DNA of 64,000 nucleotides, taken from NCBI GenBank assembly GCA_002897655.1, contig BDTJ01000038.1, positions 1,957 through 65,956 on the forward strand, given 5' to 3'. Shown in pieces: positions 3,289 to 63,292 of the stretch (its first letter is position 1; each line of letters opens with the position of its first letter). The position numbers and the translations under genes were made by a program. This DNA is from an archaeon BMS3Abin17 (GTDB lineage: Archaea; Nanobdellota; Nanobdellia; Pacearchaeales; GW2011-AR1). Below the pieces are notes generated by a model, which was given only the letters and a program-made list of their open reading frames with translations, was not told the origin of the DNA and did no database searches.

Positions 3289-3382
3289 ATCAATCCCTCT
3301 CGGCTTTTCCCCCGGGGAAATTCATTCTAAAATTATTATTCTGATTCAAAATCAATTTATCAACACACCTTTTATCATATTT

Positions 3383-4582: not shown

Positions 4583-4702
4583 TTTAATATTAAATAATGC
4601 CCATAGATAGGGTAAATATTATTAGGTTATTTGTATACTATACTATGCACATTACTTTTTAAACCTTTCTTTTTCCTAGCTTTTCATTTCCTATATTGTA
4701 AG

Positions 4703-4893
4703 ATTTGTCTCACCACTCTGCACACTCCCCAGACCTGTTACAAGAACTGTGTAAGCCAGACCAAAAAACAGCACACCAAGAATTAAACTAAGACGCCAGA
4801 GGCCTTCGCCCCCCCCCATTTTTGGATGGGCAAGTTCATTTTATGAGTATTATACTGAATCAACAACAATTTTTCCACACCTCTTTTTATATG
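4703..4893. repeat. Direct repeat copy B (191 bp), a frameshifted duplicate of the surface-protein gene 5' end
   Basis: Same sequence as 2426-2616 but with 9 C instead of 8. On the minus strand it reads MNLPIQKWGG...* and stops after 19 codons. The -1 frame still encodes GEGLWRLSLILGVLFFGLAYTVLVTGLGSVQSGETNL. Confidence 0.75.
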
Positions 4894-11344: not shown

Positions 11345-12703
11345 ATGGGTATGTTTTACACATTCAGTCCCAAAACCCCAAATATAAATAAAAGAGTTGT
11401 TAGGATACAAATACCTACAAAAATATATAAAAAAATTAAGAATAATTTTGTTAAAATAAATGTAAATGGTACAGAGTTAATAGATAAAATAACTTCAGAA
11501 AAAAGATTTGTTATACCAAAAGAACAAAAAATTATATTTTCTAATCAAAATATTGTTAAAATTGAGATTATTAAAAATAAAAAGAGAAAGAAAAAATCTT
11601 TCATTGTAAATAAAAAAATAGATATTCTAAATTGGCTCCCAGAAAAAAATCGTGAAGAAGTTAAAATAAATATTATTGGCAACAAGGACAATCTAACTTG
11701 TTTTATTAAAAATTTTAAAGGGAGAGTAAGGCAAGTAATTATTAAGAAATATGTCCCACTAGAATTTTGTAGATTGCTTGGATACTATCAAGCAGAAGGG
11801 GGAAAAGAAAAAATAATAAAGAAACGTCGAGGAAGAGAAGTTGTGATTACCAATACCAATCTTGACCTAGTCAAAGATTTTATTTTCTTGAGTAAATATC
11901 TAATAGATGCTTCCAATTGGAATGCTGAAATAAAGTTAACAAAAAGAAACGAGTTAAAAGAAAAGTTTATTATAAAAGAGCTAATAAAATTAGGAGTTAA
12001 AAAAAATAAGATAAAAATAAGAAAAGAAAAAAAATTAAAAGATTTTAGTATAAGGTTATCTATATGCTCAACGCTTTTGTCGGATATAATATTGAATTTC
12101 ATGAATTGCATCAGAAAAAAACTAATAGAGAGAAGACCACTGGGAAAAAATTACAAGATAATGTATATTAATTTTATGCAGGGTCTATTTTCAGGGGATG
12201 GAAACTATAATACATTTAAAAATAAAGATGGGGGAACACATCACAGATTAATCTTTTATGAGGGAAATAAGAACTATGCAATAGATTATCAAAAGTTATT
12301 AAGGAACGAAGGAATTAAAAGCAATATTATAAAAATCAAAGATAAAAATCTGTATATCATAAGAACTACTTTGAATTGGGAACTTTTGTTACTCCTCAAG
12401 GAATTAAATTTATTTGATTATCATAAAAAACATAAAGAAGCTTTAGTAAGTTCAATTAAAAGTCATAAAAGATATAAAAGTAATAAATATTTAATAAAAT
12501 TAGGAGATAATTTTAACATTAAACAAATTTGTGAGGTAAGTAATAAAAGTAAAGTAATATGTTATAATTGGATTAAAAAAATGGTTAATAATAATTTAAT
12601 TGTTAAAAATAAAATAAATGACTGGTCATCCTCATTAGGGGGGAAGAGAATTAAAGGTATTTTAAAAAATCTTGAAAATAAAGGAACTAATCCATCTCAC
12701 TAA
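11345..12703 (+). CDS. Free-standing LAGLIDADG-type homing-endonuclease-like protein
   Basis: Two LAGLIDADG-like motifs: LLGYYQAEGG and GLFSGDGNY. 452 aa and extremely Lys-rich. Confidence 0.45.
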   Translation: MGMFYTFSPKTPNINKRVVRIQIPTKIYKKIKNNFVKINVNGTELIDKITSEKRFVIPKEQKIIFSNQNIVKIEIIKNKKRKKKSFIVNKKIDILNWLPEKNREEVKINIIGNKDNLTCFIKNFKGRVRQVIIKKYVPLEFCRLLGYYQAEGGKEKIIKKRRGREVVITNTNLDLVKDFIFLSKYLIDASNWNAEIKLTKRNELKEKFIIKELIKLGVKKNKIKIRKEKKLKDFSIRLSICSTLLSDIILNFMNCIRKKLIERRPLGKNYKIMYINFMQGLFSGDGNYNTFKNKDGGTHHRLIFYEGNKNYAIDYQKLLRNEGIKSNIIKIKDKNLYIIRTTLNWELLLLLKELNLFDYHKKHKEALVSSIKSHKRYKSNKYLIKLGDNFNIKQICEVSNKSKVICYNWIKKMVNNNLIVKNKINDWSSSLGGKRIKGILKNLENKGTNPSH

Positions 12704-21401: not shown

Positions 21402-24400
21402 CTAAACCCACTTATCCAAGCCCTCTTGCTTTTCTGATTCCCTTCCAAAAATGCTATCAATATATCTTTTTGTTAATTCTAAATTCTGTCTCATGTATTT
21501 AGAGAGATTATACTTCTTAGCAAGGTCTAATGCAGGCTCTAGATATTTTCTTATTCCTCCCTCGTGGATTGTAAAAATTATTTTTCCCTTGCATTTAGGG
21601 CAAACCCCTGTTAAGGGAGGCCTTCTTAATATTTCATTGCATCCAACACATCTAAACTCCTGCATGGAAAATTTCCTCAAATTACCTTTCATATCTTTTA
21701 TAAAATGTCTTTCAATAATCAATCTTACAGTATCTGAAGTATCTGCTGCACGGACTCTTTCAACAAAACCCATCTGGTGCTGGACTTTTTCCTGCATTGT
21801 TGCAAGCAATTTGTAAGAAGAGCAAACAACCCCCTCATTAAAATCAGATGTATCATGAGTAAACCCAAAACCAGTAAAAGGATTTTTTTCTTGTTTCAAG
21901 ATTTGCCTAACATTATTTATTTTTACTTCAGAAGAATGTTTTCTTTGCTCAGCAAGCCTGTAAAGCTCAAGAGGATATTCATTTACAAACTCAAAATCAA
22001 GTATCTGGTCATCAACCTCTCCTGCATCAATCTTTGCATTTAGAACAAGAGGAGCATCCTGTGTTCCTCCCCTATGACTTGGCAAAAATTTTCTGGAAAA
22101 ATTTAACAGAACATCTCCCAAAAGCATGAGTGCAGCCTCGTCTCCATCACAATTATGAACAAGAATCTCATTGGCAAAAAAATTATGCTCTTCATCCACA
22201 TTAAAGCAATAGCTTTCCCTTTCCCCTAATTCTTCAATTTTCATAATTCTCGGATAAGCATAATTTTCATCGAAATCAATTCTCATTCCTCTTGGACTTT
22301 TCTGAATAAGCTCTGCTAAAATGCTCTTTTTCCTCTCTGAAATAAATCCTATCTGTTCAAACTTTTTGACAAAATTAGAAGGGATTGTTATCTTAGTTAT
22401 TTTAAATTTAGGAATTTCTCTGTTTTTCTTTATATAAAATTCACTAACTCTGTATCCTGGTTCTTTCTCATATTCATAAAATTTTGTAAAAATTCCAAAT
22501 CTTGATAAAACAAAACTTAAATCATGTTTTAATCCCTCGCTTACTGTATCACAGACCACCCTTGTATCACTTAAACTCACGCTTCCATCACCCTCAAAAT
22601 AACCTCTTAGCAATGCAGATAATTTCTCTTTATCTAAATCTAAAAATAAACTAGGAATTCTCTTATTTTTTGCGCCACTACTTAATCCAAGATAATCCTT
22701 AAATATTTCGTAAACAATCCTTGATGAAAAAGTTAAATGATCCTCATGGTTTTCGCTAGGTATTAAATTAAAATGAGATTTGAAAACATCCTTAATCAAT
22801 TCCTGAACTTCATTATTTGTGGCAGCAATAGAAACCTGATAAAAGCCTTTTTGAGAATTATTTTCTCTGATAAACCCTTCAGCAACGTATAATCCTAAAA
22901 CTTCCAACAATTTTTTATCAAAAGAAATTCTAATTGGAAGAGGAACATTATCTCTTTTAATAACTATTTTAACACTATTAGGTAAATCTTTCAATGTTTT
23001 TCCATATTTATTTAAAAATTCTTCGACAAAAATGATAGGAAAACTATCTCTCTGCCAAAAATTGTCATTTTTATTCAATCTCTCAAAAGAACCTAAATAA
23101 TCCTTGATATTTCTAAGCATTATATCTTTTCGTCCTCTAAAAATGTCTGGTAAAAAAATGTCTTTAATATCCTTTTCCTGAATATTTTTCTTGTAACCAA
23201 CCATTAATTTGTCTCCTTCCTGCAGTTGAAAGGCTCTTTTTTCTTTTTTCCCTTTAAGATATACTTTATGATTTTCAGTTAAATCTATCTGCCTCCCATC
23301 TTCTGAATAAATTTTAAGTAATTTTGTGGGAGTGTGTTTGGTTATCTCTTTTATTTTTTTCTCTCCAGGATTGCTCCATGTAGAAATACCAGATATATTC
23401 TTCTTTAAAGTCCCAAAATTATCTGCCTTCTCCTCGGGATTTGCCTCGTCAATAAATTTTCCTATTTTTTCAATGCTCCATCTTCCATCTTTATTAATAG
23501 AAACATAATTACCATATCCTAAACAATCCCTCCTAATTGCTGCATGCATAAAAGGGCTTGCAAATAATCCAAGAGTGTTTGAGAATCCAATAAATCTGCA
23601 GATAACTCCTGCACAATTATGAGGGGCCATACAAACACCTAACTGTCCAACTAAATCTTCTCTTTTTCTAATATTGTAGTATGGTTTTAATCCATAAAAC
23701 TTTACAAGCAGATCGTCCACAAAAGTAGCAACTCTCATAAACACATCATCTGCTTTTTCGTCAGGAGATTTATTAGAACAGGGCAATATAACATCATGAG
23801 GCATTAATTCCATTATTTGCTCGTCATTGACAAGAGGTTTTCCGTGTATGTCTTCTTCATATCCTAACTCTTTAAGCTTCTCAATACTGACAGAAATCTC
23901 TTTTGGCTTAAAAGACGTTAAAGGTAATTCAGTTGCATCAAATCTTATTGTCCCGTCTTTATTAACCTGCAGCCCATACATGGCTCTTAAAACTCCTTTT
24001 GCAAGAGATTCCACTTTATGCTCTGCTGACGAAGTTCCCCGGATTCCCTTAATCAAAAGAGGGATTTCTGTTTTATCAAGCCCAAGTTTTTCAATAGCTT
24101 TTTCAAGATAATGACCAATCCCTAAATCCTGTGCGCAATAAGTTTGCACTCTTTTGTGCTCCTCGCAGGGTTTTGAGGATTTTTCCCTGCACTCAAAACA
24201 ATAATACCCTCCTTCAGATTTATTCCCACAATTCTCACAGATCGGATAAATAGTATCTTTTTTGCACTTGCTGCAATAATAAATAGGAAAAGAGCTTTTT
24301 ACACTCCCAACTTCACAGGCAGTCTGAACACTTCTTAATCTTCCTCCCTCATTACCTACTGGAAACAAAACATTCGGGCTTCCTGCTAATTTTCTTACTT

Positions 24401-26234
24401 TTGCCTTTTCAGGCCTTCCCATCCTTGCTCCGATAAAATCCCCTGCCTTGTCCTTTATCTTAAATTCAGAAACAGAGTTGATTATTTCTAAAATCGGTTT
24501 ATCTGATTTGAATCTTTCTTCATCAATATGCTCTTTTAATATATTATTTTTATCAACTAAATTAAAATCAACCCCAAGATTTGCAAGCAAGGCCTTGCTG
24601 TTTTCCCTGCTTATCACAACATTCTCAATTGTTACTTCATGTTCTACCCCTAATAATTCAAGTGCTCTTTTTCCCCTCTTAAATTTCTCTTGCTCAGTCT
24701 GATTAAAAGGGAAGATAATTTTATTATCTGTTTTTGAATGTTTTAGCCAGTCTAATAATCCTAAAACCTGTTCTTTTGAAATCTCTGTCCAATAAAATAT
24801 AAATTTTGGGTGAAGAGGAATCTTATATTTCCTGCTTATTTCAACAGCTTTCTCAAAAGAAACCTCATAAAAATTAATTTCTTTTTCTAGTTCAGGATTT
24901 TTCTCCCGAAGTTCCAGACCCCACCACTCCTCTACATAACCTGGTTTTATCAAATCAGAATTCCTGTTGCTCAGGTCGCTAAAAGGAAATAAAATATCTC
25001 CAAGGTAAATTATCTCTTCAACATCTGGATAAAGTTTTTTTGCTTCTTCCATGCTTTCAAGTTTCTTAACACTTCCATTAAACAACTTTATTATAGGGCC
25101 ATCAATAAGGTCGCAGGTAGTTACAGCACAGCCTTTTGTGGGTTTTTCTAACTTTAATTGTGTCCCAATTGCAATAAAACCATCTGTCATTGCCATGGTG
25201 GCAGGATGTATTGACGCCGCACTAAATCCACTTACCCTTCCTCTCCCATATCTAAACCTAAATCCCCCTGATCTTGAAGGATGCCCAAAAATAGGTCTTC
25301 CGGCAACTAAATCCTTTATATAAGTTGGAGAATCATCTGTATCTCCTAAATCTCTTTTTTCATGCAATTTAATATATTCTTCTAAAAAATCAAAACCTGT
25401 TGAATTTATTCCTTTTTTCTTTGCCCGGGCCAATAACCTAAACCCTTTTGCTGCTTTTTGCGCAAGCCCTTCTGAAAAAATAAGGCACATCCCCCCTCTT
25501 ATATTATTTGTTTCAACTCTGCCTAAATTTTTATAATTAGAAACTTCTAATTTTTCAGTTTGCTCTCCAGAAATTTGGATAGGGAGATTTTTAGCTAAAA
25601 AATACATTTCCTCTTCAGTGGGAAAATACTGAAGATTAGTTATCCTCTCATGATAATCTGTATTTTCAGCAATATATCTTTTAATTTCTTCTTCACTAGG
25701 GTCATATTTTGCAAACCCAAAGGATTCTCTAAGGTAATCAATCAGCATCAATACAACACAACTTGCAGTAGTTCCTGCAGAACGAATTGGTCCTGAAAAA
25801 TAAGCTATAAAATACTCCTTTCCTTCCCTTGTTTTTCCAAGTTTTAGTTCAGTAAACCCCTCTATAGGAGAAGAGACAACCCCCAGAGTAGTATATGCAA
25901 AACCAACTCTTATTCCTGCTTCAATTGATTCCAACAAACTGGCAAACTTACAGAATTTTTGTTTTGATACTTCTTCTGCAATCTTAAAGGAAACCATAAT
26001 ATCCAACTTCCCATACTCTTTTTCAAGCTCAAGAATTCTTTCTGCAATTTTAGAGCCCTGCATTTGAGGATATAGTGTTGAAATTAACCCCACAACTTTT
26101 TCAGCCATTGTCATTGCAAGTGGAATCTCTACTTTATCCACAGGGTCTAATCCTTGTTTCCTCGCTTCCTCACAAACAGCATAGACACTCTTAACCTGTT
26201 TCTCAAGATCTTTGAAATATTTTTTGGGGTTCAT
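21402..26234 (-). CDS. polC: DNA polymerase II (PolD) large subunit DP2, containing an intein
   Basis: 1610 aa. The two-barrel DP2 regions are conserved, with Cys-cluster Zn fingers (CSKCKK...CENCG, CVGCNE...CPKC). Without the intein the extein is about 1152 aa. Confidence 0.9.
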   Translation of the reverse strand: MNPKKYFKDLEKQVKSVYAVCEEARKQGLDPVDKVEIPLAMTMAEKVVGLISTLYPQMQGSKIAERILELEKEYGKLDIMVSFKIAEEVSKQKFCKFASLLESIEAGIRVGFAYTTLGVVSSPIEGFTELKLGKTREGKEYFIAYFSGPIRSAGTTASCVVLMLIDYLRESFGFAKYDPSEEEIKRYIAENTDYHERITNLQYFPTEEEMYFLAKNLPIQISGEQTEKLEVSNYKNLGRVETNNIRGGMCLIFSEGLAQKAAKGFRLLARAKKKGINSTGFDFLEEYIKLHEKRDLGDTDDSPTYIKDLVAGRPIFGHPSRSGGFRFRYGRGRVSGFSAASIHPATMAMTDGFIAIGTQLKLEKPTKGCAVTTCDLIDGPIIKLFNGSVKKLESMEEAKKLYPDVEEIIYLGDILFPFSDLSNRNSDLIKPGYVEEWWGLELREKNPELEKEINFYEVSFEKAVEISRKYKIPLHPKFIFYWTEISKEQVLGLLDWLKHSKTDNKIIFPFNQTEQEKFKRGKRALELLGVEHEVTIENVVISRENSKALLANLGVDFNLVDKNNILKEHIDEERFKSDKPILEIINSVSEFKIKDKAGDFIGARMGRPEKAKVRKLAGSPNVLFPVGNEGGRLRSVQTACEVGSVKSSFPIYYCSKCKKDTIYPICENCGNKSEGGYYCFECREKSSKPCEEHKRVQTYCAQDLGIGHYLEKAIEKLGLDKTEIPLLIKGIRGTSSAEHKVESLAKGVLRAMYGLQVNKDGTIRFDATELPLTSFKPKEISVSIEKLKELGYEEDIHGKPLVNDEQIMELMPHDVILPCSNKSPDEKADDVFMRVATFVDDLLVKFYGLKPYYNIRKREDLVGQLGVCMAPHNCAGVICRFIGFSNTLGLFASPFMHAAIRRDCLGYGNYVSINKDGRWSIEKIGKFIDEANPEEKADNFGTLKKNISGISTWSNPGEKKIKEITKHTPTKLLKIYSEDGRQIDLTENHKVYLKGKKEKRAFQLQEGDKLMVGYKKNIQEKDIKDIFLPDIFRGRKDIMLRNIKDYLGSFERLNKNDNFWQRDSFPIIFVEEFLNKYGKTLKDLPNSVKIVIKRDNVPLPIRISFDKKLLEVLGLYVAEGFIRENNSQKGFYQVSIAATNNEVQELIKDVFKSHFNLIPSENHEDHLTFSSRIVYEIFKDYLGLSSGAKNKRIPSLFLDLDKEKLSALLRGYFEGDGSVSLSDTRVVCDTVSEGLKHDLSFVLSRFGIFTKFYEYEKEPGYRVSEFYIKKNREIPKFKITKITIPSNFVKKFEQIGFISERKKSILAELIQKSPRGMRIDFDENYAYPRIMKIEELGERESYCFNVDEEHNFFANEILVHNCDGDEAALMLLGDVLLNFSRKFLPSHRGGTQDAPLVLNAKIDAGEVDDQILDFEFVNEYPLELYRLAEQRKHSSEVKINNVRQILKQEKNPFTGFGFTHDTSDFNEGVVCSSYKLLATMQEKVQHQMGFVERVRAADTSDTVRLIIERHFIKDMKGNLRKFSMQEFRCVGCNEILRRPPLTGVCPKCKGKIIFTIHEGGIRKYLEPALDLAKKYNLSKYMRQNLELTKRYIDSIFGRESEKQEGLDKWV
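22152..23525 (-). mobile_element. Intein (458 aa) with a LAGLIDADG homing-endonuclease domain inside DP2
   Basis: The insert starts with Cys after ...FMHAAIRRD and ends ...ILVHN followed by CDGDEAA. Internal LAGLIDADG motifs LLEVLGLYVAEGFI and LLRGYFEGDGSV. Junction codons were checked on the nucleotide sequence. Confidence 0.85.
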
Positions 26235-28962: not shown

Positions 28963-30174
28963 TTATTTATAATTCAAAGAATTTTCAATGATTTCTTTTG
29001 CCTTCTTAAGGATGTTATCTGTTATTGCCAGCTTTATCTCTCTCATTCTTCCCCCTCTTCCTTTTGAAATAACAGTCACATTAATAACGCCCAGCATATC
29101 AAATTCCTGAATAATATCCCCTACTCTTCTCTGAGTAAGTACTTCTAATTTGTTTTTTGAACACAATTCCTGATAATAGTTATAAACATCTCCTGTAAAA
29201 ATAGGTTGTTTTTTATTTTTTTGAGACAGCTGAATAATAGAATATAGCACTAATTGAAATTGCTTTGGCTCTGAGCTAATAACATCTAAAATCTTGTCTC
29301 TTTCTATCTTGTTGTTTGCTTCATCCAAATACTTCATGAGAATTTTCTTGCTATTATCTCTCTCTGCTAGTTCTCCCGCAATTCTCAATAGATCCAGTGC
29401 TCTTCTTGCATCCCCATGCTCTCTTGCAGCATAAGCAGCGCATTTAGCAATAACCCCTTCCTGAACAACCCCCTCTTTAAAAGCATCTTTTGCCCTTTTT
29501 GTCAAAATCTTCTGTAATTGCAAGGCGTTATATGGGTGAAATACTATCTCTTCCTCTGAAAGTGAACTTCTGACCCGGGGGTCTAGACCATCTAAAAAAG
29601 TCAAATCATTACTAATTCCCACAATACACATTTGTGTTTTTGAAAGCTCTGTATTAAGCCTTGTGAGATTATACAAAAAATCACTTGAAATTTTCTTCAT
29701 GGTCTGGTCAATCTCATCTAAAATCAAGACAATCATTTGTTTTTCTGCATCAATAATCTCAATAAATTTGTTATACACAGATTCTGTTGGCAAACCTGTT
29801 GCAGGAACCTTCCCCCCCATCTTCTTAATTAATTCTGCGAGAATCCGATATTCTGTATCTGAAACTTTCTTTAATTTACAGTTCAGGTATTCTATTCTTA
29901 ATTTAAACCCTGCGCCTTCTTTTGTTCTTTTAAAAAGCTCATCCCTAACAAACTGGATTGAAAGGGTTTTCCCTGTTCCTGTCTTTCCGTAAAGAAACAA
30001 ATTGCTGGTTCTCTCGCCTTTTAAGACAGGAGCAAGTATAGAAGCTATCTGTTTAATCTGTTCCTCTCTATGAGGGATGCTCTCTGGCTGATAGTTTGCC
30101 TGCAAAATTGATTTGTTTTTAAAAAGTCCTTCCCTATTTACAGAGTCAAAGATCTCATTAAGCTCTTTTTCCAT
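28963..30174 (-). CDS. cdc6: Orc1/Cdc6 replication initiator
   Basis: Walker A LYGKTGTGKT, AAA+ core and a C-terminal winged helix. Confidence 0.9.
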   Translation of the reverse strand: MEKELNEIFDSVNREGLFKNKSILQANYQPESIPHREEQIKQIASILAPVLKGERTSNLFLYGKTGTGKTLSIQFVRDELFKRTKEGAGFKLRIEYLNCKLKKVSDTEYRILAELIKKMGGKVPATGLPTESVYNKFIEIIDAEKQMIVLILDEIDQTMKKISSDFLYNLTRLNTELSKTQMCIVGISNDLTFLDGLDPRVRSSLSEEEIVFHPYNALQLQKILTKRAKDAFKEGVVQEGVIAKCAAYAAREHGDARRALDLLRIAGELAERDNSKKILMKYLDEANNKIERDKILDVISSEPKQFQLVLYSIIQLSQKNKKQPIFTGDVYNYYQELCSKNKLEVLTQRRVGDIIQEFDMLGVINVTVISKGRGGRMREIKLAITDNILKKAKEIIENSLNYK

Positions 30175-30382
30175 TTCTCACACACCTTTATTTCCTATGA
30201 AACTACATAGATATTTAAATTTTTCAACGGTAAAAAATTAATTTATTATATAAAGAATTAGGACTACTCAAAAAGAAAGACACCACAATTTCTAATGGAA
30301 AAATGAAATTAATGGCCTAAAAAACATCTTGCTTATAATTTTATTTTCCTTGTATTATAATTATATAAAAAATATTTGTAAT

Positions 30383-30496
30383 ATCAAAAAGTCCTTGTGT
30401 TTTACCGCACCTTAAAAGGTGCGGTTTGTTTGGACTTTAGGATGTCCAAGGATTCATCCACACACTAAAGTGTGTGGTTTTCTCCAGGAATCCCTG
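30383..30496. repeat. Inverted repeat arm 1 (~110 bp) containing two hairpins
   Basis: The reverse complement is about 97% identical to 31811-31919. Internal palindromes ACCGCACCTTAAAAGGTGCGGT and CCACACACTAAAGTGTGTGG. Confidence 0.8.
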
Positions 30497-30567
30497 ACAT
30501 AAAACTTTGAAGTTTTCTTATTATATTAAATAAAAAGATATTGCTATTATAATTAAAAGATTTATTT

Positions 30568-30630
30568 ATTATTATATATATTATATTATATATATTATAT
30601 ATATTATATTATATATATTATATTATATAA
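30568..30630. repeat. AT microsatellite (TATATATTATAT units)
   Basis: Visible tandem repetition. Confidence 0.8.
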
Positions 30631-30809
30631 ATTTTTTTAAATAAAATAAAAAAATAAAAAACCAAAAATTTCTTTTTAAAGGTTTCCATATGAAACCAAG
30701 GGGTCTGTGTCTGAGCTTAAATCCACCTTGATCTAAAACCTCTTCGTAATATATACTCTCAAAACCTATATAATTTTACAGAAAAGTTTATAAAGATTTT
30801 TCTTCTGAG

Positions 30810-31076
30810 TTGGTTATGCAGAACAATAAGAACCCTTTTAGTGTTATTTCCGGAAAAATGATAGTAACCAAAGAGGGGAAAAGGCTTGGGTTTGTTAAAG
30901 ATATTACATTTGAAACTAAATCTGGAGAACTTATTAACCTGGTAGTAAAAGATTCTACCCCCTATACTAAAAACCTTAATTTAGAGAGGACCAGCTCAAA
31001 CGAACTTCTTATACCTTACAGTGCAATAATCGCTATAGGCGATTTTGTAATAGTCTCTGAAGAAGATTTGATTTGA
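30810..31076 (+). CDS. PRC-barrel-like small protein
   Basis: 88 aa; the GKRLGFVKDITFETKSGELINLVV pattern is typical of archaeal PRC-barrel proteins. Confidence 0.45.
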   Translation: MVMQNNKNPFSVISGKMIVTKEGKRLGFVKDITFETKSGELINLVVKDSTPYTKNLNLERTSSNELLIPYSAIIAIGDFVIVSEEDLI

Positions 31077-31156
31077 ATAAATAATCTTCTAAAACCCCTT
31101 TAACTCTCCATTAATAATATACAAATATTTAAAAACATAATTTTGATTAAAATTAA

Positions 31157-44958: not shown

Positions 44959-45318
44959 TCATTTGTCTTTTAAAGATATTCTAAAATCCCTTTCTTTTTT
45001 AATCAGGTCCAGGATTTCACTATCAAGTTCCTTCTTTCTGACTGCAGGAGCAAGTTTAAAATAATTTAAAGATGAAAATTTATCATATAAGCCTTTATTT
45101 TTAATGAGATTTACAAAGTTTTCTTTATCTTCAGGGTAAATAATCTTTTCATACTCCTTTACTGAACATTTTTTATTTGTTCCAAAAAGAATATCAGTAT
45201 TTTTTTCTTTAGCTAATTCAATAATTTTTATTTTAATTTCCTTCTCTTTCAGTTCTATTTCACTTTTTAATTTTTGAATTCTTTCAAATTCATCAACTAA
45301 ACCATCATCATTTGCCAT
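44959..45318 (-). CDS. Stand-alone homologue of the C-terminal domain of the Cas4-like nuclease at 60395-61576
   Basis: KKCSVKEYEKIIYPEDKENFVNLIKNKGLYDKF...ERDFRISLKDK aligns with KKASVREFDRIVMPEGEDKAKFLQLLKDKGVYEEC...EKDYRISLSRRK. Confidence 0.45.
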   Translation of the reverse strand: MANDDGLVDEFERIQKLKSEIELKEKEIKIKIIELAKEKNTDILFGTNKKCSVKEYEKIIYPEDKENFVNLIKNKGLYDKFSSLNYFKLAPAVRKKELDSEILDLIKKERDFRISLKDK

Positions 45319-59227: not shown

Positions 59228-59356
59228 TCACTCCTCCCCAACATCCCCTCTCTTACTCAAAGATATCCTGTGATCTTTTTCAATGTTTGCCCTATCCTTT
59301 TCCGGCATTGCATCAAGCATTCTTTTTCTGTTCTTGGGTGCCTGCAATCCAGTCAT
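59228..59356 (-). pseudogene. 42-aa ORF that duplicates the Cas4-like C-terminal tail
   Basis: My own translation: MTGLQAPKNRKRMLDAMPEKDRANIEKDHRISLSKRGDVGEE, compared with the Cas4-like end ...KDKVNIEKDYRISLSRRKDLEEE. ATGA overlap with the Fic stop. Confidence 0.4.
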
Positions 59357-60300
59357 TTTTTCTTTTTTTCAAGCTTCTCCTGAAATTTTTTGTATTCTTT
59401 TATATACAATTTTATTGTTGGTTTTAAATTTTTATTTAGTTCATATTCTTTTAATGTTCTGTAATATTCCTGGCTATTTTTAAAATCAATATTAACCGGG
59501 GGGAGGTTATGTTTAATTAAGATATTATTTAATAAGATTCTTCCAACCCTTCCATTTCCATCTGCAAATGGATGGACATTCTCAAATTGGTTGTGTATTA
59601 CAGCACCAAGAATTAATGCAGGATATTTCTCTTTATTTTTGTTATACCAATTTATTAATTCTTTTAATAAGTAATTAATTCTGGTCTGTGGCGCCCCTTC
59701 ATGAACCACTTGCCCAAGATTATTTGTGACAACAACTTCTTCTCCTTTTTTTCTTAAGCTTCCTGCAAAGGATTTAGAATTTTTAAAAACAATTTTATGG
59801 ATTTTTTTAATTAAATTAATTGAAATATGCTCTTTGGCCTGCCTGATAAATCTTATTGCTTCATCTACTCCATAAGCTTCTGCAATATCTTCTTTTGATT
59901 TGTCCAGCCATTTGTCTTTTTCTAAAATATCCTTAACTTCTTTCTGGCTTAATTTGCTTCCTTCTATAGCATTAGTATTATAGGTAAAAATTTTAGAGAA
60001 TATTTTCCAGTCTTTTTCAGATAAATGGAATATCTTTAAGGGAATCTCTGCCTCTAATTTTTTTATTTCCTTAATCTCCTGTTTAGTCAATTCAAAATCT
60101 AAAGGGTCTTTTATGACTTTATATTTGTGTATTTCTTCAAGGATTAGTTTTTCTGCAATTTCTCTCCTTTCTTTTAATTTTCTGTTGCTTAAATCAGTTC
60201 CAAGATACTTTCTGAATTTATGAACTTTTAATCCCTCCCTATAAGAATGAGCTAAATAATATTTTGTTTTCTTTCCCTGCTTTCTTTTTTCAATATGCAT
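59353..60300 (-). CDS. Fic/Doc-family protein
   Basis: Fic motif HPFADGNGRVGR. Confidence 0.8.
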   Translation of the reverse strand: MHIEKRKQGKKTKYYLAHSYREGLKVHKFRKYLGTDLSNRKLKERREIAEKLILEEIHKYKVIKDPLDFELTKQEIKEIKKLEAEIPLKIFHLSEKDWKIFSKIFTYNTNAIEGSKLSQKEVKDILEKDKWLDKSKEDIAEAYGVDEAIRFIRQAKEHISINLIKKIHKIVFKNSKSFAGSLRKKGEEVVVTNNLGQVVHEGAPQTRINYLLKELINWYNKNKEKYPALILGAVIHNQFENVHPFADGNGRVGRILLNNILIKHNLPPVNIDFKNSQEYYRTLKEYELNKNLKPTIKLYIKEYKKFQEKLEKKKK

Positions 60301-60394
60301 AATAATATATGGGTGTCTACATATTTAAATCTTTTGTTCTCAGGTGTCTACATTTTAAGTAATTTGTAGTCACCTCTCTTGTGGTGCGAGTTTC

Positions 60395-61576
60395 TCACTC
60401 CTCCTCCAAATCCTTCCTTCTACTCAATGATATCCTGTAATCTTTTTCAATGTTTACTTTATCCTTGATTTCTTGCTCAATTTCATCCTTGAGGACCTTG
60501 CTGTTAAGCTTTGGATAGCAGAGCATAGAGCATTCTTCATACACCCCTTTATCTTTTAATAACTGCAGGAACTTTGCCTTATCTTCTCCTTCAGGCATGA
60601 CAATCCTGTCAAACTCCCTGACAGAGGCTTTCTTATTGCTTCCATACGCCACATCTATCTCAAACTGCTTTGCATATCTTATCAGGTTATCCTTAAATTC
60701 TTCTTCTGCTGTTTTTAATTCTGAAAGCTTTGTCTTTATCTCAGAATACTTATCAACCAACTTAACACCTTCATCTTCCTTGAACTGTTCAACAACTTCA
60801 ATCTTTTCCAATTCTGCCTGATGCTTGAATGAGGGGCATTCTCCCCTGAACCCGCAATAATCACATAAAGCAGTAACATTTGTAGGAAACTCTGTCGCAG
60901 ATTCAATCTCTCTTATCCTCTCAATAACTTCATCCTGCAGTTTTTCCACCTGTTTATCTGTTCTTTCAGAGACAGCATCTTTATTAAAAGCCAGCATATG
61001 CCAGATTAACTTTACTGACTTTGCATCTTTGAATTTATCCTTAACCCAGATAGAATACATTGCCAGCTGCCTGTCTTCATCTGCTTCATTCTGGTCTTTC
61101 ATTCTTGAATTTGTCTTGTAATCACAAACATAATAATTTCCCTTGCTGTCACAACCCAGCTTATCTATCCTCACATGCCACTGATTCCCGTCTTTCAGGG
61201 TCATCCTGTCCTGAGTCTCTAATCCCAGTATTGTCATATCCTCAAAAGGCTTCATCCTGTCATAATAATCTGTCAGGAACTTTTCACCCATCTTCCTGTA
61301 ATTCTCAGCATCAAGGCCTTTCTTAACAATTAAAATATCATAAGAATAATTCTTCTTCCACAAATCCCTGTAGAACTTAACAAGGCTCTCCTTTGCAACC
61401 CTTTGCCTGAATTTCTTTCTTTTATACAGGTCTTCCAGAGCCTGATGCACCATGTCCCCCATAAATGCCTCAATAGTAGTGGGAGTTTCTGGCTTCTTCT
61501 TATCAATATAACGCAGTTTATACTGATATGGGCAATTTTCAAAAGTCGTAACTCTCGAATGCGAGTATGTTGCCAT
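60395..61576 (-). CDS. Stand-alone Cas4-like PD-(D/E)xK nuclease (DUF83-like) with a C-terminal extension
   Basis: N-terminal Cys (FENCPYQYKLRY), a D...VCDYKT motif, QLAMY and a C-terminal CDYCGFRGECP cluster. No cas genes or CRISPR array nearby. Confidence 0.6.
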   Translation of the reverse strand: MATYSHSRVTTFENCPYQYKLRYIDKKKPETPTTIEAFMGDMVHQALEDLYKRKKFRQRVAKESLVKFYRDLWKKNYSYDILIVKKGLDAENYRKMGEKFLTDYYDRMKPFEDMTILGLETQDRMTLKDGNQWHVRIDKLGCDSKGNYYVCDYKTNSRMKDQNEADEDRQLAMYSIWVKDKFKDAKSVKLIWHMLAFNKDAVSERTDKQVEKLQDEVIERIREIESATEFPTNVTALCDYCGFRGECPSFKHQAELEKIEVVEQFKEDEGVKLVDKYSEIKTKLSELKTAEEEFKDNLIRYAKQFEIDVAYGSNKKASVREFDRIVMPEGEDKAKFLQLLKDKGVYEECSMLCYPKLNSKVLKDEIEQEIKDKVNIEKDYRISLSRRKDLEEE

Positions 61577-61609
61577 AAAATTAGATATATTAGGGGGTTT
61601 TAAGGTTTT
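61577..61609. promoter_or_regulatory. Shared promoter/leader module, copy 1
   Basis: AAAATTAGATATATTA... directly 5' of the Cas4-like ATG (minus strand). Confidence 0.5.
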
Positions 61610-61662
61610 TTATGTTGGTTTATTCACACAAAACCTGATATCTAAAGCTATTAGGAAGAATT

Positions 61663-61950
61663 TTAATAAACATTCTTTCTATATCCAATTCTAAGGACAA
61701 TTATTTTTCTCCCTGAGACAATTATGTCTAGAATTGCCCTGTATTTTAAGACTCTTAATCTCCAAAGCTTAGAGCCTTTTAATTTCTTTAAATGTGGAAA
61801 AGGATTTTCTCTTATAGAATATAATTTTTTTAATATCATATCTGCATCTTTTTTCTGAATTTTTTTAAGAAATCTTTCAGCAATCTCCTCAATTTGGAGT
61901 GAATGCATTTTAATGCAAGGATACTCCAAGTTCCTTTGCAACTTGTTCAA
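61663..61950 (-). CDS. RelE/ParE-family toxin
   Basis: LWRLRVLKYRAILDIIVSGRKIIVLRIGYRKNVY. Confidence 0.6.
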   Translation of the reverse strand: MNKLQRNLEYPCIKMHSLQIEEIAERFLKKIQKKDADMILKKLYSIRENPFPHLKKLKGSKLWRLRVLKYRAILDIIVSGRKIIVLRIGYRKNVY

Positions 61951-62146
61951 TTGATTTTATTTTTCCTTTCTTGACATTTTCTAGTGCTATTTTAATGTCG
62001 TCAATTTCTTCTGGAGTTAACTCGTCCTCTTCGACTTCGTCCAATACATTGTTTAAAACCTCGTCATAAGATTCTCTTTCATATCTTTTCATTGTTCTAA
62101 GCCGATTAAGAGTTTCTTGGCTTATTTGCACAGTTGTTTTTTCCAT
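61910..62146 (-). CDS. Cognate antitoxin
   Basis: 78 aa; overlaps the toxin start. Confidence 0.45.
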   Translation of the reverse strand: MEKTTVQISQETLNRLRTMKRYERESYDEVLNNVLDEVEEDELTPEEIDDIKIALENVKKGKIKSIEQVAKELGVSLH

Positions 62147-62350
62147 GTTATATAGTAACTATAATTACTATATAAATGTTCTGTTTTTGGGATTATCTGG
62201 AGTTTTGAGAAAATTTATATACTCTTTTGCTCTTTATATTTAAGGCAGTAATGCGCTTTGGCGTTTCATCTTTTGGGATGAGACAAATGAGAGTAAGGTT
62301 CTTTGAACCCTGGCCACTGTCTATTTTTTTATTATTTTGACCAACTCTTC

Positions 62351-62545
62351 TTATTTCTCTTTTTTTCTGCTTGTAGATTCTATTTTCAATTGCAGGGCAT
62401 TAAACAAATGCACAATTTGGTCCTTTAATTTTTGCGGGACATTAATTCCATAGATAATTTTTTTATTTTTAATTAATGCAACAGAGTAATCTTTTTCAAA
62501 AATCTCGCTTCCAGATTTATCAATCCGAAATAAAGTAATTGCCAT
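62351..62545 (-). CDS. Small hypothetical protein
   Basis: 64 aa, preceded by promoter module copy 2. Confidence 0.3.
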   Translation of the reverse strand: MAITLFRIDKSGSEIFEKDYSVALIKNKKIIYGINVPQKLKDQIVHLFNALQLKIESTSRKKEK

Positions 62546-62585
62546 AAAATTAGATATATTAAATGGTTTTAAAGAATTCGGTGTT
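62546..62585. promoter_or_regulatory. Shared promoter/leader module, copy 2
   Basis: 35 nt identical to copy 3 and 22 nt identical to copy 1. Confidence 0.5.
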
Positions 62586-62612
62586 ATTGCTTTTTACATA
62601 GAATTTATTTTA

Positions 62613-62969
62613 TCAATTATACACCAGTATCTCTTTTCTTGGAGATTTATGCCCTAAACTCAGTGTTAAGGGAATCTGCACATTAACTTCTTTCTTGTTT
62701 TTATTAAAAGAAATCATAAGCAAAACATAAATATTATTTGTTTTATATGTAATTGACATCTTTATGTTTTTAATATTGCTTAAAACATCTTTATTAATTC
62801 CTAAATTCTCACTTGCACTCATTATTTCCATCCCGCAAAGAAGATTATTATGGCTTACATCTAAGACAAAATCTCCAATATCTAAAGAAGCTTTTACCTT
62901 CTCGCCGTCAGATATAAAGAATATATCATTATCAGCATCATAATCTATTGTTTTAATTTGTCTTGCCAT
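62613..62969 (-). CDS. DUF2283-like antitoxin
   Basis: MARQIKTIDYDADNDIFFISDGEKV...GMEIMSAS fits the pattern YD.eaD.lyi...GiEil. Confidence 0.5.
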   Translation of the reverse strand: MARQIKTIDYDADNDIFFISDGEKVKASLDIGDFVLDVSHNNLLCGMEIMSASENLGINKDVLSNIKNIKMSITYKTNNIYVLLMISFNKNKKEVNVQIPLTLSLGHKSPRKEILVYN

Positions 62970-63253
62970 TTTCTATCACTATTCCAAGCACTTATGACTT
63001 TTAAATCTTTTGAGAGATTAATCTCAATTATTGAAACTAATGAATATTTCCTGCTCATCCTAAACCATAGCTTAAATCTGTTTATTTCCTTTCCCCGCTC
63101 AATTTTTTCTAACTTATTAATCTGAGATAAAAAACTTCTGACAATACTTTCATTTATTGGCCTTTCCCTTGTTCTCTTATAAAAATGAGGGTCAAAAATA
63201 ATGTTATCCTGATTTAATCTTTCAAGAAACTTTTTAACCTCTTTTAATTCCAT
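62945..63253 (-). CDS. DUF4258-like (RelE/ParE-superfamily) toxin
   Basis: DPHFYKRTRERPINESIV matches the H..R..ER.I signature. Confidence 0.5.
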   Translation of the reverse strand: MELKEVKKFLERLNQDNIIFDPHFYKRTRERPINESIVRSFLSQINKLEKIERGKEINRFKLWFRMSRKYSLVSIIEINLSKDLKVISAWNSDRKWQDKLKQ

Positions 63254-63292
63254 TTAACTAGATATATTAAATGGTTTTAAAGAATTCGGTGT
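63254..63292. promoter_or_regulatory. Shared promoter/leader module, copy 3
   Basis: TTAACTAGATATATTAAATGGTTTTAAAGAATTCGGTGT. Confidence 0.5.

Follow-up and report, generated by a model that had tools for sequence, protein, structure and literature searches.

The locus and its genomic setting

The 64,000-nt stretch of DNA analysed here (the window) comes from the Pacearchaeota (DPANN) MAG BMS3Abin17, an archaeal host that encodes PolD DP1/DP2 and Cdc6. The surroundings of the locus form a defence island with SoFic-like, GmrSD, type I restriction-modification and toxin-antitoxin genes. Within it lie three copies of a repeat of ~40 nt (the module), all in direct orientation on the minus strand and each ending at the ATG of an open reading frame (Table 1). 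Copy 3 stands before a 102-aa gene that overlaps its DUF2283 partner by 25 nt, copy 2 before a 64-aa ORF, and copy 1 before a PD-(D/E)XK (RecB-family) nuclease gene. The interval between copies 2 and 1 additionally holds a DUF7557/VapB-like antitoxin gene and a ParE-like toxin gene, preceded by a spacer that carries a terminator-like hairpin and the pair's own promoter (TTTATATA with a 28-nt palindrome). The module does not drive this pair, which has that different promoter instead. The original prediction of exactly one toxin-antitoxin-like cassette per interval does not describe this arrangement, as a 64-aa gene remnant and the DUF7557/ParE pair share one interval. Elsewhere in the island, the Fic gene is flanked by a direct repeat of ~76 nt (82% identity, spacing 1167), which is a diverged gene tail and not a promoter.

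Table 1 Features of the module locus, in window coordinates.
Feature	Position	Strand	Remarks
Module copy 3	63251-63292	minus	Ends at ATG of 102-aa ORF
34-nt block of copy 3	63259-63292	minus	Same sequence as in copy 2; GTTAA and ATG follow
TTTAAAA of copy 3	63275-63281	minus
Palindrome near copy 3	63243-63281		Between TATA box and ATG
102-aa gene	62945-63253	minus	Behind copy 3 (putative promoter)
DUF2283 partner gene	62613-62969	minus	118 aa; overlaps 102-aa gene
Module copy 2	62543-62584	minus	Ends at ATG of 64-aa ORF
5' 34 nt of copy 2	62551-62584	minus	Identical to copy 3
3' 23 nt of copy 2	62539-62561	minus	Identical to copy 1
TTTAAAA of copy 2	62567-62573	minus
64-aa ORF	62351-62545	minus	Behind copy 2 (putative promoter)
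Spacer	62147-62350	minus	Hairpin and promoter of toxin-antitoxin pair
Terminator-like hairpin	62295-62311		Within spacer
28-nt palindrome	62148-62175		In promoter of toxin-antitoxin pair; between TATA box and ATG
DUF7557/VapB-like antitoxin gene	61910-62146	minus
ParE-like toxin gene	61663-61908	minus
Module copy 1	61574-61615	minus	Ends at ATG of PD-(D/E)XK ORF; A-rich BRE-like stretch
23-nt block of copy 1	61570-61592	minus	Identical to copy 2
TTAAAA of copy 1	61598-61603	minus
PD-(D/E)XK nuclease gene	60395-61576	minus	393 aa; behind copy 1 (putative promoter)
Fic-flanking repeat	60395-60470 and 59228-59303		Diverged gene tail

Structure of the repeated module

The copies resemble one another in pairs, over different segments. 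Copies 2 and 3 have 34 nt in common (ACACCGAATTCTTTAAAACCATTTAATATATCTA) and differ in the last 5 nt only, while copies 1 and 2 share 23 nt (TAATATATCTAATTTTATGGCAA) and differ in the first 21 nt only. All three copies contain TTAAAACC-N3-TAATATATCTA, and the 5' arm of the module reads ACACCGAATTC...TTTAAAACC. The original prediction of a triplicated module thus holds in that three copies each end at an ATG, with the lengths of the identical segments corrected from 35 to 34 nt and from 22 to 23 nt. Compared in register with copy 2, copy 3 matches at 35/38 positions and copy 1 at 29/38, against a mean of 12.6/38 and a maximum of 19/38 for 45 other genes of the window. A search of the 64-kb window (part of a ~1-Mb genome) with the core pattern, run as had been proposed, returned no fourth copy at up to 3 mismatches, and none of 100 dinucleotide shuffles gave at least two matches to the 41-mer or 22-mer. 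The repeat therefore exceeds chance.

No conservation between the copies was found 5' of the module, and no terminal inverted repeats were found at the copies, which, unlike a MITE or insertion-sequence-type repeat, are all clustered. The copies also have no hairpin in common (single-strand folding z = +0.46 for copy 2 and -0.38 for copy 1), no inverted repeat common to them was found in 59-64 kb, and the core is not palindromic. An Rfam search of the whole window at gathering thresholds was empty, and an E-value search of 59-64 kb gave no credible match.

In every module-led unit a separate TATA box precedes the ATG at the canonical distance. In copies 2 and 3 it is a TTTAAA whose first base lies at -28 relative to the ATG, and copy 1 carries TTAAAA in register with it; the centre of the box lies ~25 nt 5' of the ATG. 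The 21 nt separating the box from the ATG contain no GGAGG or GGTG that could serve as a Shine-Dalgarno sequence. The module thus looks like a putative archaeal core promoter for leaderless mRNA, its activity and transcription starts being read from this geometry, and the proposal that TTTAAAA is a TATA-like box in a leaderless layout is borne out to that extent. The layout is common in the window: TATA-like hexamers show a sharp peak at -29 to -27 from the start codons of 18 further genes (mode -28), and other first-in-operon genes have the same TATA-to-ATG geometry. The TATA box and leaderless layout are therefore generic, but the extended module sequence is not. The generic promoter consensus of the window comprises just an A-rich BRE and TTTtAAAAt; the BRE position of copy 1 (ATAAAAAACC) fits it, while that of copies 2 and 3 (CCGAATTC) is poorer in A. 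A generic consensus, or a chance likeness in AT-rich DNA, would account for the TATA box and its distance from the ATG, but is refuted for the 64-kb window by the shuffles, by the lack of any other site at up to 3 mismatches and by the ceiling of 19/38 at other promoters, and is as an explanation extremely improbable. Within the 64 kb, the finding that would have refuted the original prediction, a module that is simply the genome-wide consensus promoter, was thus not made.

In every copy and every strain variant, only the 11-nt core TAATATATCTA is invariant, together with TTAAAACC. Such invariance would be expected of a shared operator: selection would keep the sequence identical because a single transcription factor, possibly an antitoxin or an HTH protein encoded nearby, binds to the TATA-proximal TAATATATCTA region and controls the three units jointly as a small defence regulon. 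Archaeal repressors commonly act between the TATA box and the start, which is where the core sits, and HTH proteins are encoded near the module copies. However, the perfect identity extends to ACACCG upstream of the BRE, which should be unconstrained, the core is non-palindromic, the sites in the 64-kb window are all adjacent and not dispersed, and homologous genes in relatives lack the core. Maintenance as a common operator is consequently considered unlikely.

Genes behind the copies

The 102-aa family is conserved in Pacearchaeota and Nanoarchaeota (75-86% identity), and the DUF2283 gene is paired with it in nearly all related contigs examined. The best match of the predicted structure of the 102-aa protein is BrnT (E 6.9e-3, TM 0.54/0.69), followed by HigB2 and MqsR, so that the protein at best resembles BrnT/RelE-type RNase toxins, at marginal significance. 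It had been labelled a DUF4258 toxin, an assignment that finds little backing: the window protein has no match to the DUF4258 profile (PF14076) even at E up to 10, and only 2 of 28 homologues match it weakly (best E 0.008).

The 64-aa ORF is a truncated remnant that corresponds to the 5' third of an uncharacterised gene family of ~170 aa. Of the 27 relatives recovered by a full HMMER scan, most measure 147-177 aa and align from residue 1, and the ORF lacks the C-terminal two thirds that are conserved in the family. Codon usage in the frame is coding-like, and a nonsense allele (Q52 to stop) is present in other strains. An orphan or de novo gene had been considered when a word-indexed search returned only the ORF itself and a 51-aa nonsense variant, and was ruled out by the HMMER relatives. 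Derivation of the region from the nuclease gene was likewise rejected, as only 14-nt matches connect the two apart from the module. Loci of the ~170-aa family were not found in viral contigs or among the loci retrieved for the other genes.

The third product had been called Cas4-like, but the 393-aa RecB-family protein scores 31 bits against a Cas4 cut-off of 65 bits. It is conserved, with 70-87% identity across the best 120 of 1,589 DPANN homologues. With one gene a truncated remnant, one not detectably DUF4258 and one encoding a nuclease of 393 aa, the description of the three as small defence genes is inaccurate. The shared start ATG-GCA(-A) of copies 1 and 2 had further been read as a sign of copying. 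The PD-(D/E)XK homologues all begin ATG(G/A)CAACA and the ~170-aa family natively begins M-A-I (seen in three members), so the shared start is native to both gene families and acquisition of ATGGCAA by copy 2 from the nuclease start was discarded.

Homologues of two of the three genes were compared for what lies upstream. In 11 other contigs, the 102-aa/DUF2283 pair is preceded by three distinct upstream sequences, all unrelated to the module, and the DNA upstream of three PD-(D/E)XK homologues (81-87% identical) is also unrelated to it. These homologues occur in unrelated contexts, and no close relative with a syntenic locus was found for an empty-site comparison. Scans with the core in one genome, one metagenome and one viral collection, from which BMS3Abin17 and its close relatives are apparently absent, gave isolated single matches (34 genome, 11 viral and 119 metagenome loci), none of them flanked by module sequence, and the 5' arm had no match in viral contigs. 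The upstream DNA of the homologues and the collection scans together show that these genes did not bring the module with them.

Strain variation and the origin of the copies

Ten contigs of the same population were retrieved. All are collinear with the window at 99.5-100% identity, and no unit is missing, moved or added in any of them. The ends of some contigs (63303, 61594, 60358 and ~62580) were considered as structural variants but are uninformative; Logan contigs are built with k=31 and therefore break at the 34-nt repeat.

Sequence differences between strains concentrate in the 5-nt spacer 3' of the TATA box. In the metagenome contigs L063 (chimeric, with 1.3x coverage and adapter sequence in it) and L064, the spacer of copy 2 has CCCC in place of CCATT and is thus copy-1-like; over 1,019 nt there are only 4 differences, and this change supplies 3 of them. 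In L002, which spans all three copies, the spacer of copy 1 has CCCCT in place of CCCCC and is copy-2-like; 3 SNPs follow within 50 nt of this change, and the other 2,077 nt are identical.

Local duplication and gene conversion are suggested by the mosaic structure of copy 2 and by the concentration of strain differences in the spacer. The reading favoured here, with reasonable though far from complete confidence, is that an ordinary archaeal core promoter was copied locally before three units and that the copies were reshuffled by short-tract recombination or gene conversion. Three adjacent, unrelated transcription units, namely the 102-aa gene with its DUF2283 partner, the truncated ~170-aa gene and the conserved PD-(D/E)XK nuclease, would then start from paralogous promoters. 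Exchange between the copies would keep them similar while reshuffling their segments. Copy 2 is cleanly divided into a 5' part of 34 nt that equals copy 3 and a 3' part of 23 nt that equals copy 1, and in other strains the junction of the two parts falls elsewhere. Gene conversion is the presumed mechanism. Simple conversion from copy 1 is not exact, since the variant copy 2 has four C and copy 1 five, and C-tract slippage or mutation is an alternative source of this variant. Gene conversion alone also leaves unexplained how the 40-nt segment was first placed at the exact ATG distance before unrelated genes.

A rival reading is a duplicative landing pad, in which units are inserted serially at the head of the array, by site-specific recombination in trans or by a single crossover with a circle bearing short homology, and each leaves a direct repeat of the promoter target, every unit thus retaining a promoter copy. 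The logic is integron-like, with the promoter copies as att-like scars. Direct repeats do bound three successive units in 4 kb (100% identity over 34 nt with a spacing of 708 and over 23 nt with 969, and the ~76-nt repeat at Fic), and similarity is greatest in the upstream-most pair of copies, as entry of new units at the head would predict. The 102-aa/DUF2283 unit is moreover closely delimited (5 nt ahead of the ATG and 28 nt past the stop), and the region is a defence island. However, Pfam scans of ~40 window ORFs detected no integrase of the tyrosine or serine recombinase type, the sole related match being a sub-threshold Phage_int_SAM_5 inside a Schlafen/HTH protein. The retrieved population contigs are all collinear, the module was not found elsewhere in the collection scans, the copies lack a common hairpin or inverted repeat, and a common att site is lacking, the repeat at Fic being a gene tail and not a promoter. 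Serial insertion is therefore regarded as doubtful. A broader form of the idea, a cassette-stacking hotspot that is recombinase-independent or served in trans and at which a promoter landing pad by the SPFH gene takes up small units with defence or toxin-antitoxin functions, appears less probable still. If it were true, every insertion would duplicate the pad and thereby give the unit a leaderless promoter at the exact ATG distance, the direct repeats would permit excision, exchange or loss of units, and expression might be tuned or switched by the variable C/T spacer that follows the TATA box. The original prediction of integron-like cassettes, each delivered with its own promoter, fits poorly with homologues that lack the module, the lack of an integrase or hairpin and a constant gene order, and the comparison of strains that it suggested, for cassette gain or loss, showed neither among the public contigs of the population.

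Under local duplication with gene conversion, the three units may be expected to have similar expression and possibly common regulation, and the direct repeats of 23-34 nt could mediate deletion or duplication of the intervening genes. In a leaderless genome, expression of a gene requires no more than a TATA box correctly spaced from the ATG, and the locus offers a concrete case of unrelated neighbours under near-identical putative 40-nt promoters in such an archaeal genome, with short-tract exchange between promoter copies apparently taking place inside a DPANN population in nature. Should the copies mediate gene gain and loss as well, defence islands could be assembled by a simple route that needs no integrase; at present, the locus is a local curiosity of one uncultivated lineage.

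Comparison with known systems

Integron cassettes occur in archaea, where toxin-antitoxin and restriction functions are prevalent among them (Ghaly et al. 2022, PMC9668308). The locus resembles integron cassette arrays in its tandem small genes, rich in toxin-antitoxin and defence functions and separated by a repeated sequence. In integrons, however, the cassettes carry 3' attC sites, DNA structures recognised by the integrase IntI, whereas the repeat here is direct, unstructured, TATA-containing and located 5' of the gene, and no integrase was found among the ~40 ORFs. Integron cassettes are also mostly promoterless, in contrast to the module-led units, every one of which has its own TATA box.

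Direct repeats at att sites flank integrated archaeal elements, and Campbell-type insertions arise by a single crossover. Perfect direct repeats of 23-34 nt similarly flank discrete gene units at this locus, but the units lack an integrase, the repeat is a putative promoter and not a tRNA or the 3' end of a gene, and no excised or empty form was seen in the contigs retrieved.

As in type II toxin-antitoxin operons, the 102-aa/DUF2283 and DUF7557/ParE genes form two-gene units that overlap or abut, each with a palindrome between its TATA box and its ATG, as in the autoregulated promoters of such operons. The repeated module differs from these promoters in being non-palindromic and in also preceding a nuclease gene outside the toxin-antitoxin class and a gene remnant.

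In layout the module resembles the BRE/TATA core promoters from which leaderless mRNAs are transcribed in archaea such as Haloferax and Sulfolobus, with which it shares a TATA centre ~25 nt before the ATG, no Shine-Dalgarno sequence and, putatively, no 5' UTR. Unlike ordinary leaderless promoters, 34-41 nt that include unconstrained positions are repeated here before three unrelated neighbours, and the copies show the mosaic pattern typical of gene conversion.

Structure of the promoter-like repeat

A ~41-nt sequence occurs in three direct copies on the minus strand, each ending in an ATG and numbered 3, 2 and 1 in the direction of reading. Identity extends over 34 nt between copies 2 and 3 (ACACCGAATTCTTTAAAACCATTTAATATATCTA) and over 23 nt between copies 1 and 2 (TAATATATCTAATTTTATGGCAA), each one base off the length originally predicted, and all three share TTAAAACC-N3-TAATATATCTA. 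When the window was shuffled 100 times, no shuffle gave two matches, and a search of the 64 kb for the core pattern with up to three mismatches recovered no site beyond the three copies. The predicted triplication is real, and this local promoter-like repeat is non-random. It lies at the margin of a defence island.

Order of the features around the repeat, 5' to 3' along the minus strand
Feature	Position	Strand	Context
SPFH/Band 7 gene			first, then copy 3
Copy 3	63251-63292	minus	precedes 102-aa ORF
102-aa gene, then DUF2283 gene		minus	after copy 3
Copy 2	62543-62584	minus	precedes 64-aa ORF
64-aa ORF	62351-62545	minus	after copy 2
DUF7557/VapB-like and ParE-like pair		minus	between 64-aa ORF and copy 1; own promoter
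Copy 1	61574-61615	minus	precedes 393-aa PD-(D/E)XK ORF
PD-(D/E)XK nuclease		minus	after copy 1
SoFic-like Fic gene, GmrSD, type I restriction-modification system			beyond nuclease

First genes in archaea are usually leaderless and internal genes Shine-Dalgarno-led. The window shows this arrangement: across the upstream regions of 48 of its ORFs, TATA-like hexamers peaked sharply, with starts between -29 and -27 relative to the start codon, and GGAGG/GGTG-like motifs were found instead in ORFs close behind another gene. Because the TTTAAA of the module begins at -28, the exact mode of this distribution, its reading as a putative leaderless core promoter is well founded. Within the window, the module is also distinct from a generic promoter, the alternative raised with the original prediction: the consensus of 18 other promoters comprises an A-rich BRE and TTTtAAAAt and nothing more, and when aligned with copy 2 at the ATG, copies 3 and 1 are identical at 35 and 29 of 38 positions, respectively, versus a mean of 12.6 and a maximum of 19 for the other 45 genes. 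A second promoter-segment duplication occurs in the same island, where a TATA-like box plus ATGTAGACACC is duplicated in tandem in the Fic promoter region (60312-60358, minus strand; TTAAAATGTAGACACC ... TTAAATATGTAGACACC).

Host and genomic context

Genes for Cdc6/Orc1 and for both PolD subunits, DP1 and the intein-containing DP2, show that the window is archaeal. Its G+C content is 31%, and proteins identical to its own are annotated in 'archaeon BMS3Abin17', a MAG from deep-sea metal sulfide deposits assigned to the Pacearchaeota in a published comparison (PMC11537232). The intein of DP2, the PolD large subunit (21402-26234, minus strand), contains a LAGLIDADG domain, as does a separate 452-aa ORF (11345-12703, plus strand). 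A 980-nt intergenic region (30175-31156) adjoins cdc6/orc1 (28963-30174) and the PolD genes, and is likely a replication origin, since an 80-nt pure A/T palindromic tract (30555-30637) lies within it. Elsewhere, a 135-nt repeat with 92% identity (2412-2546 and 4689-4823) and a three-copy 68-nt family (2533-2600, 3295-3362 and 4809-4876) are located immediately 3' of minus-strand genes, one of them a subtilase gene, and may represent 3' ends or terminators shared by adjacent genes.

Genes downstream of the repeat

The description of the downstream genes as three small defence genes holds loosely at most, given what these genes are. For the first, labelled a DUF4258 toxin, no Pfam match was found in the 102-aa protein, and DUF4258 was touched weakly by two of 28 homologues and by no others. 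Its structural model is confident (pLDDT 85) and best matches BrnT in the PDB (E 6.9e-3), with HigB2 and MqsR next; the modelled fold would thus be marginally RelE-like. In copy 3 only, a perfect 8-nt inverted repeat (CCATTTAA-N9-TTAAATGG; 63243-63281, minus strand) spans the start codon of this gene (single-strand fold z = -2.6), and at the equivalent place the homologous pair on another contig (L053) carries an 11-nt inverted repeat of different sequence (AAAATTATTAA ... TTAATAATTTT, read by eye).

The 64-aa ORF appeared to be an orphan in a word-indexed search, a status ruled out by 27 relatives in a full HMMER scan. Most of these are 147-177 aa, aligned from residue 1 with 45-57% identity, and they run on into an invariant ICNDxDGHxHEIK block for which the window has no coding sequence, indicating that the ORF is the 5' (N-terminal) third of a truncated gene. 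The ~147-177-aa family (P0243, P0247, P0251 and others) is uncharacterised, with no Pfam, PHROG or NCBIfam match. Codon usage in the ORF is still coding-like, and codon 52 has a nonsense allele (Q52 to stop) in two contigs from other samples. A terminator-like hairpin (62295-62311, minus strand) followed by a T-rich tail lies ~40 nt past its stop codon. The 206-nt spacer folds better than shuffles (z = -3.9), partly via the toxin-antitoxin palindrome, a 28-nt near-perfect element (TTATATAGTAACTA/TAATTACTATATAA; 62148-62175, minus strand) that overlaps both the TATA box of the DUF7557/ParE pair and its start region and is probably the autoregulatory operator of this pair.

The third gene, originally called Cas4-like, encodes a RecB-family exonuclease that scored 31 bits, below the Cas4 cut-off of 65. 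A 119-aa ORF without a Pfam match (44959-45318, minus strand) is a stand-alone homologue (42% identity) of its C-terminal ~120 residues. The Fic stop codon is followed directly by a remnant of 42 codons (59228-59356, minus strand) with homology to the nuclease C-terminal tail; over its last ~76 nt the remnant shares 82% identity with 60395-60470. A copy of the tail thus stands on either side of the Fic gene, suggesting either an insertion or a decayed paralogue.

Distribution of the module and its genes

The 102-aa family comprises >350 proteins, the best 120 of which (75-86% identity) belong to Pacearchaeota and Nanoarchaeota. Among 11 contigs inspected, which cover three or more unrelated genomic contexts, the DUF2283 gene follows the 102-aa homologue with the same 25-nt overlap in ten (the exception being L054, a 1.1-kb contig), and the module was found upstream of none. 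The nuclease has >1,500 homologues (best 120, 70-87% identical); at three loci (81-87% identity), the upstream DNA is unrelated apart from a generic TATA box, and synteny with the window is absent. Exact-pattern scans for the core across 185,579 species-representative genomes, IMG/VR and a metagenome collection returned only single matches, with neither the module flanks nor a correctly placed ATG, and the 5' arm had no match in IMG/VR. Because neither homologues nor collections yielded the module, it is not a portable part of the two testable downstream genes, contrary to the proposal that module and gene were delivered together, and appears specific to the BMS3Abin17 population.

Exchange between copies

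Copy 2 is a clean mosaic: its differences from copy 3 are confined to the 5 nt directly preceding the ATG, and those from copy 1 to the first 21 nt. Contigs of the same population from other samples match the window at 99.5-100% identity, and the few positions that differ are concentrated in the 5-nt spacer separating the TATA box from TAATATATCTA. The copy 2 spacer of L063 and L064 is CCCC for CCATT (copy-1-like and one base shorter), accounting for three of only four differences in 1,019 nt. In L002 the copy 1 spacer is CCCCT for CCCCC (copy-2-like); the following 50 nt hold three further SNPs, and the remaining 2,000 nt hold none. Of the 11 differences seen in ~14 kb of compared strain sequence, four lie inside these 15 spacer nt. 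We interpret this clustering as the signature of short-tract exchange between copies, with end points differing among strains, and C-tract slippage may contribute to the spacer variants. Such exchange between the promoter copies would be ongoing and is probably gene conversion. The ATGGCAA shared by two copies is no evidence of copying, as both gene families natively start Met-Ala. Strain differences are tightly clustered in L002 (four within 50 nt, window 61544-61593, covering copy 1 and the nuclease 5' end) and in L050, another contig of the population (two within 8 nt, 59535-59542, in Fic), suggesting short recombination tracts in the BMS3Abin17 population.

Comparison with cassette arrays and integrons

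Accretion of the units as cassettes between direct repeats is improbable, and its support is circumstantial: three successive units have direct repeats around them (34 nt, 23 nt and, at Fic, a ~76-nt diverged copy of the nuclease 3' end), the most similar pair of promoter copies is the most upstream one, and the locus lies within a defence island. Cassette gain or loss between copies, the comparison proposed for strains, was not seen, gene order being the same in every public contig of the population. The locus likewise provided no evidence for the suggested integron-like array: no integrase domain was found in ~40 window ORFs, the three copies share no conservation upstream of the module, folding potential is absent from copies 1 and 2 (z = -0.38 and +0.46), and the only inverted repeat in copy 3 is 8 nt long, unique to that copy and formed with its own start codon. 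The repeats of this locus are direct and stand at the 5' end of each unit, TATA box included.
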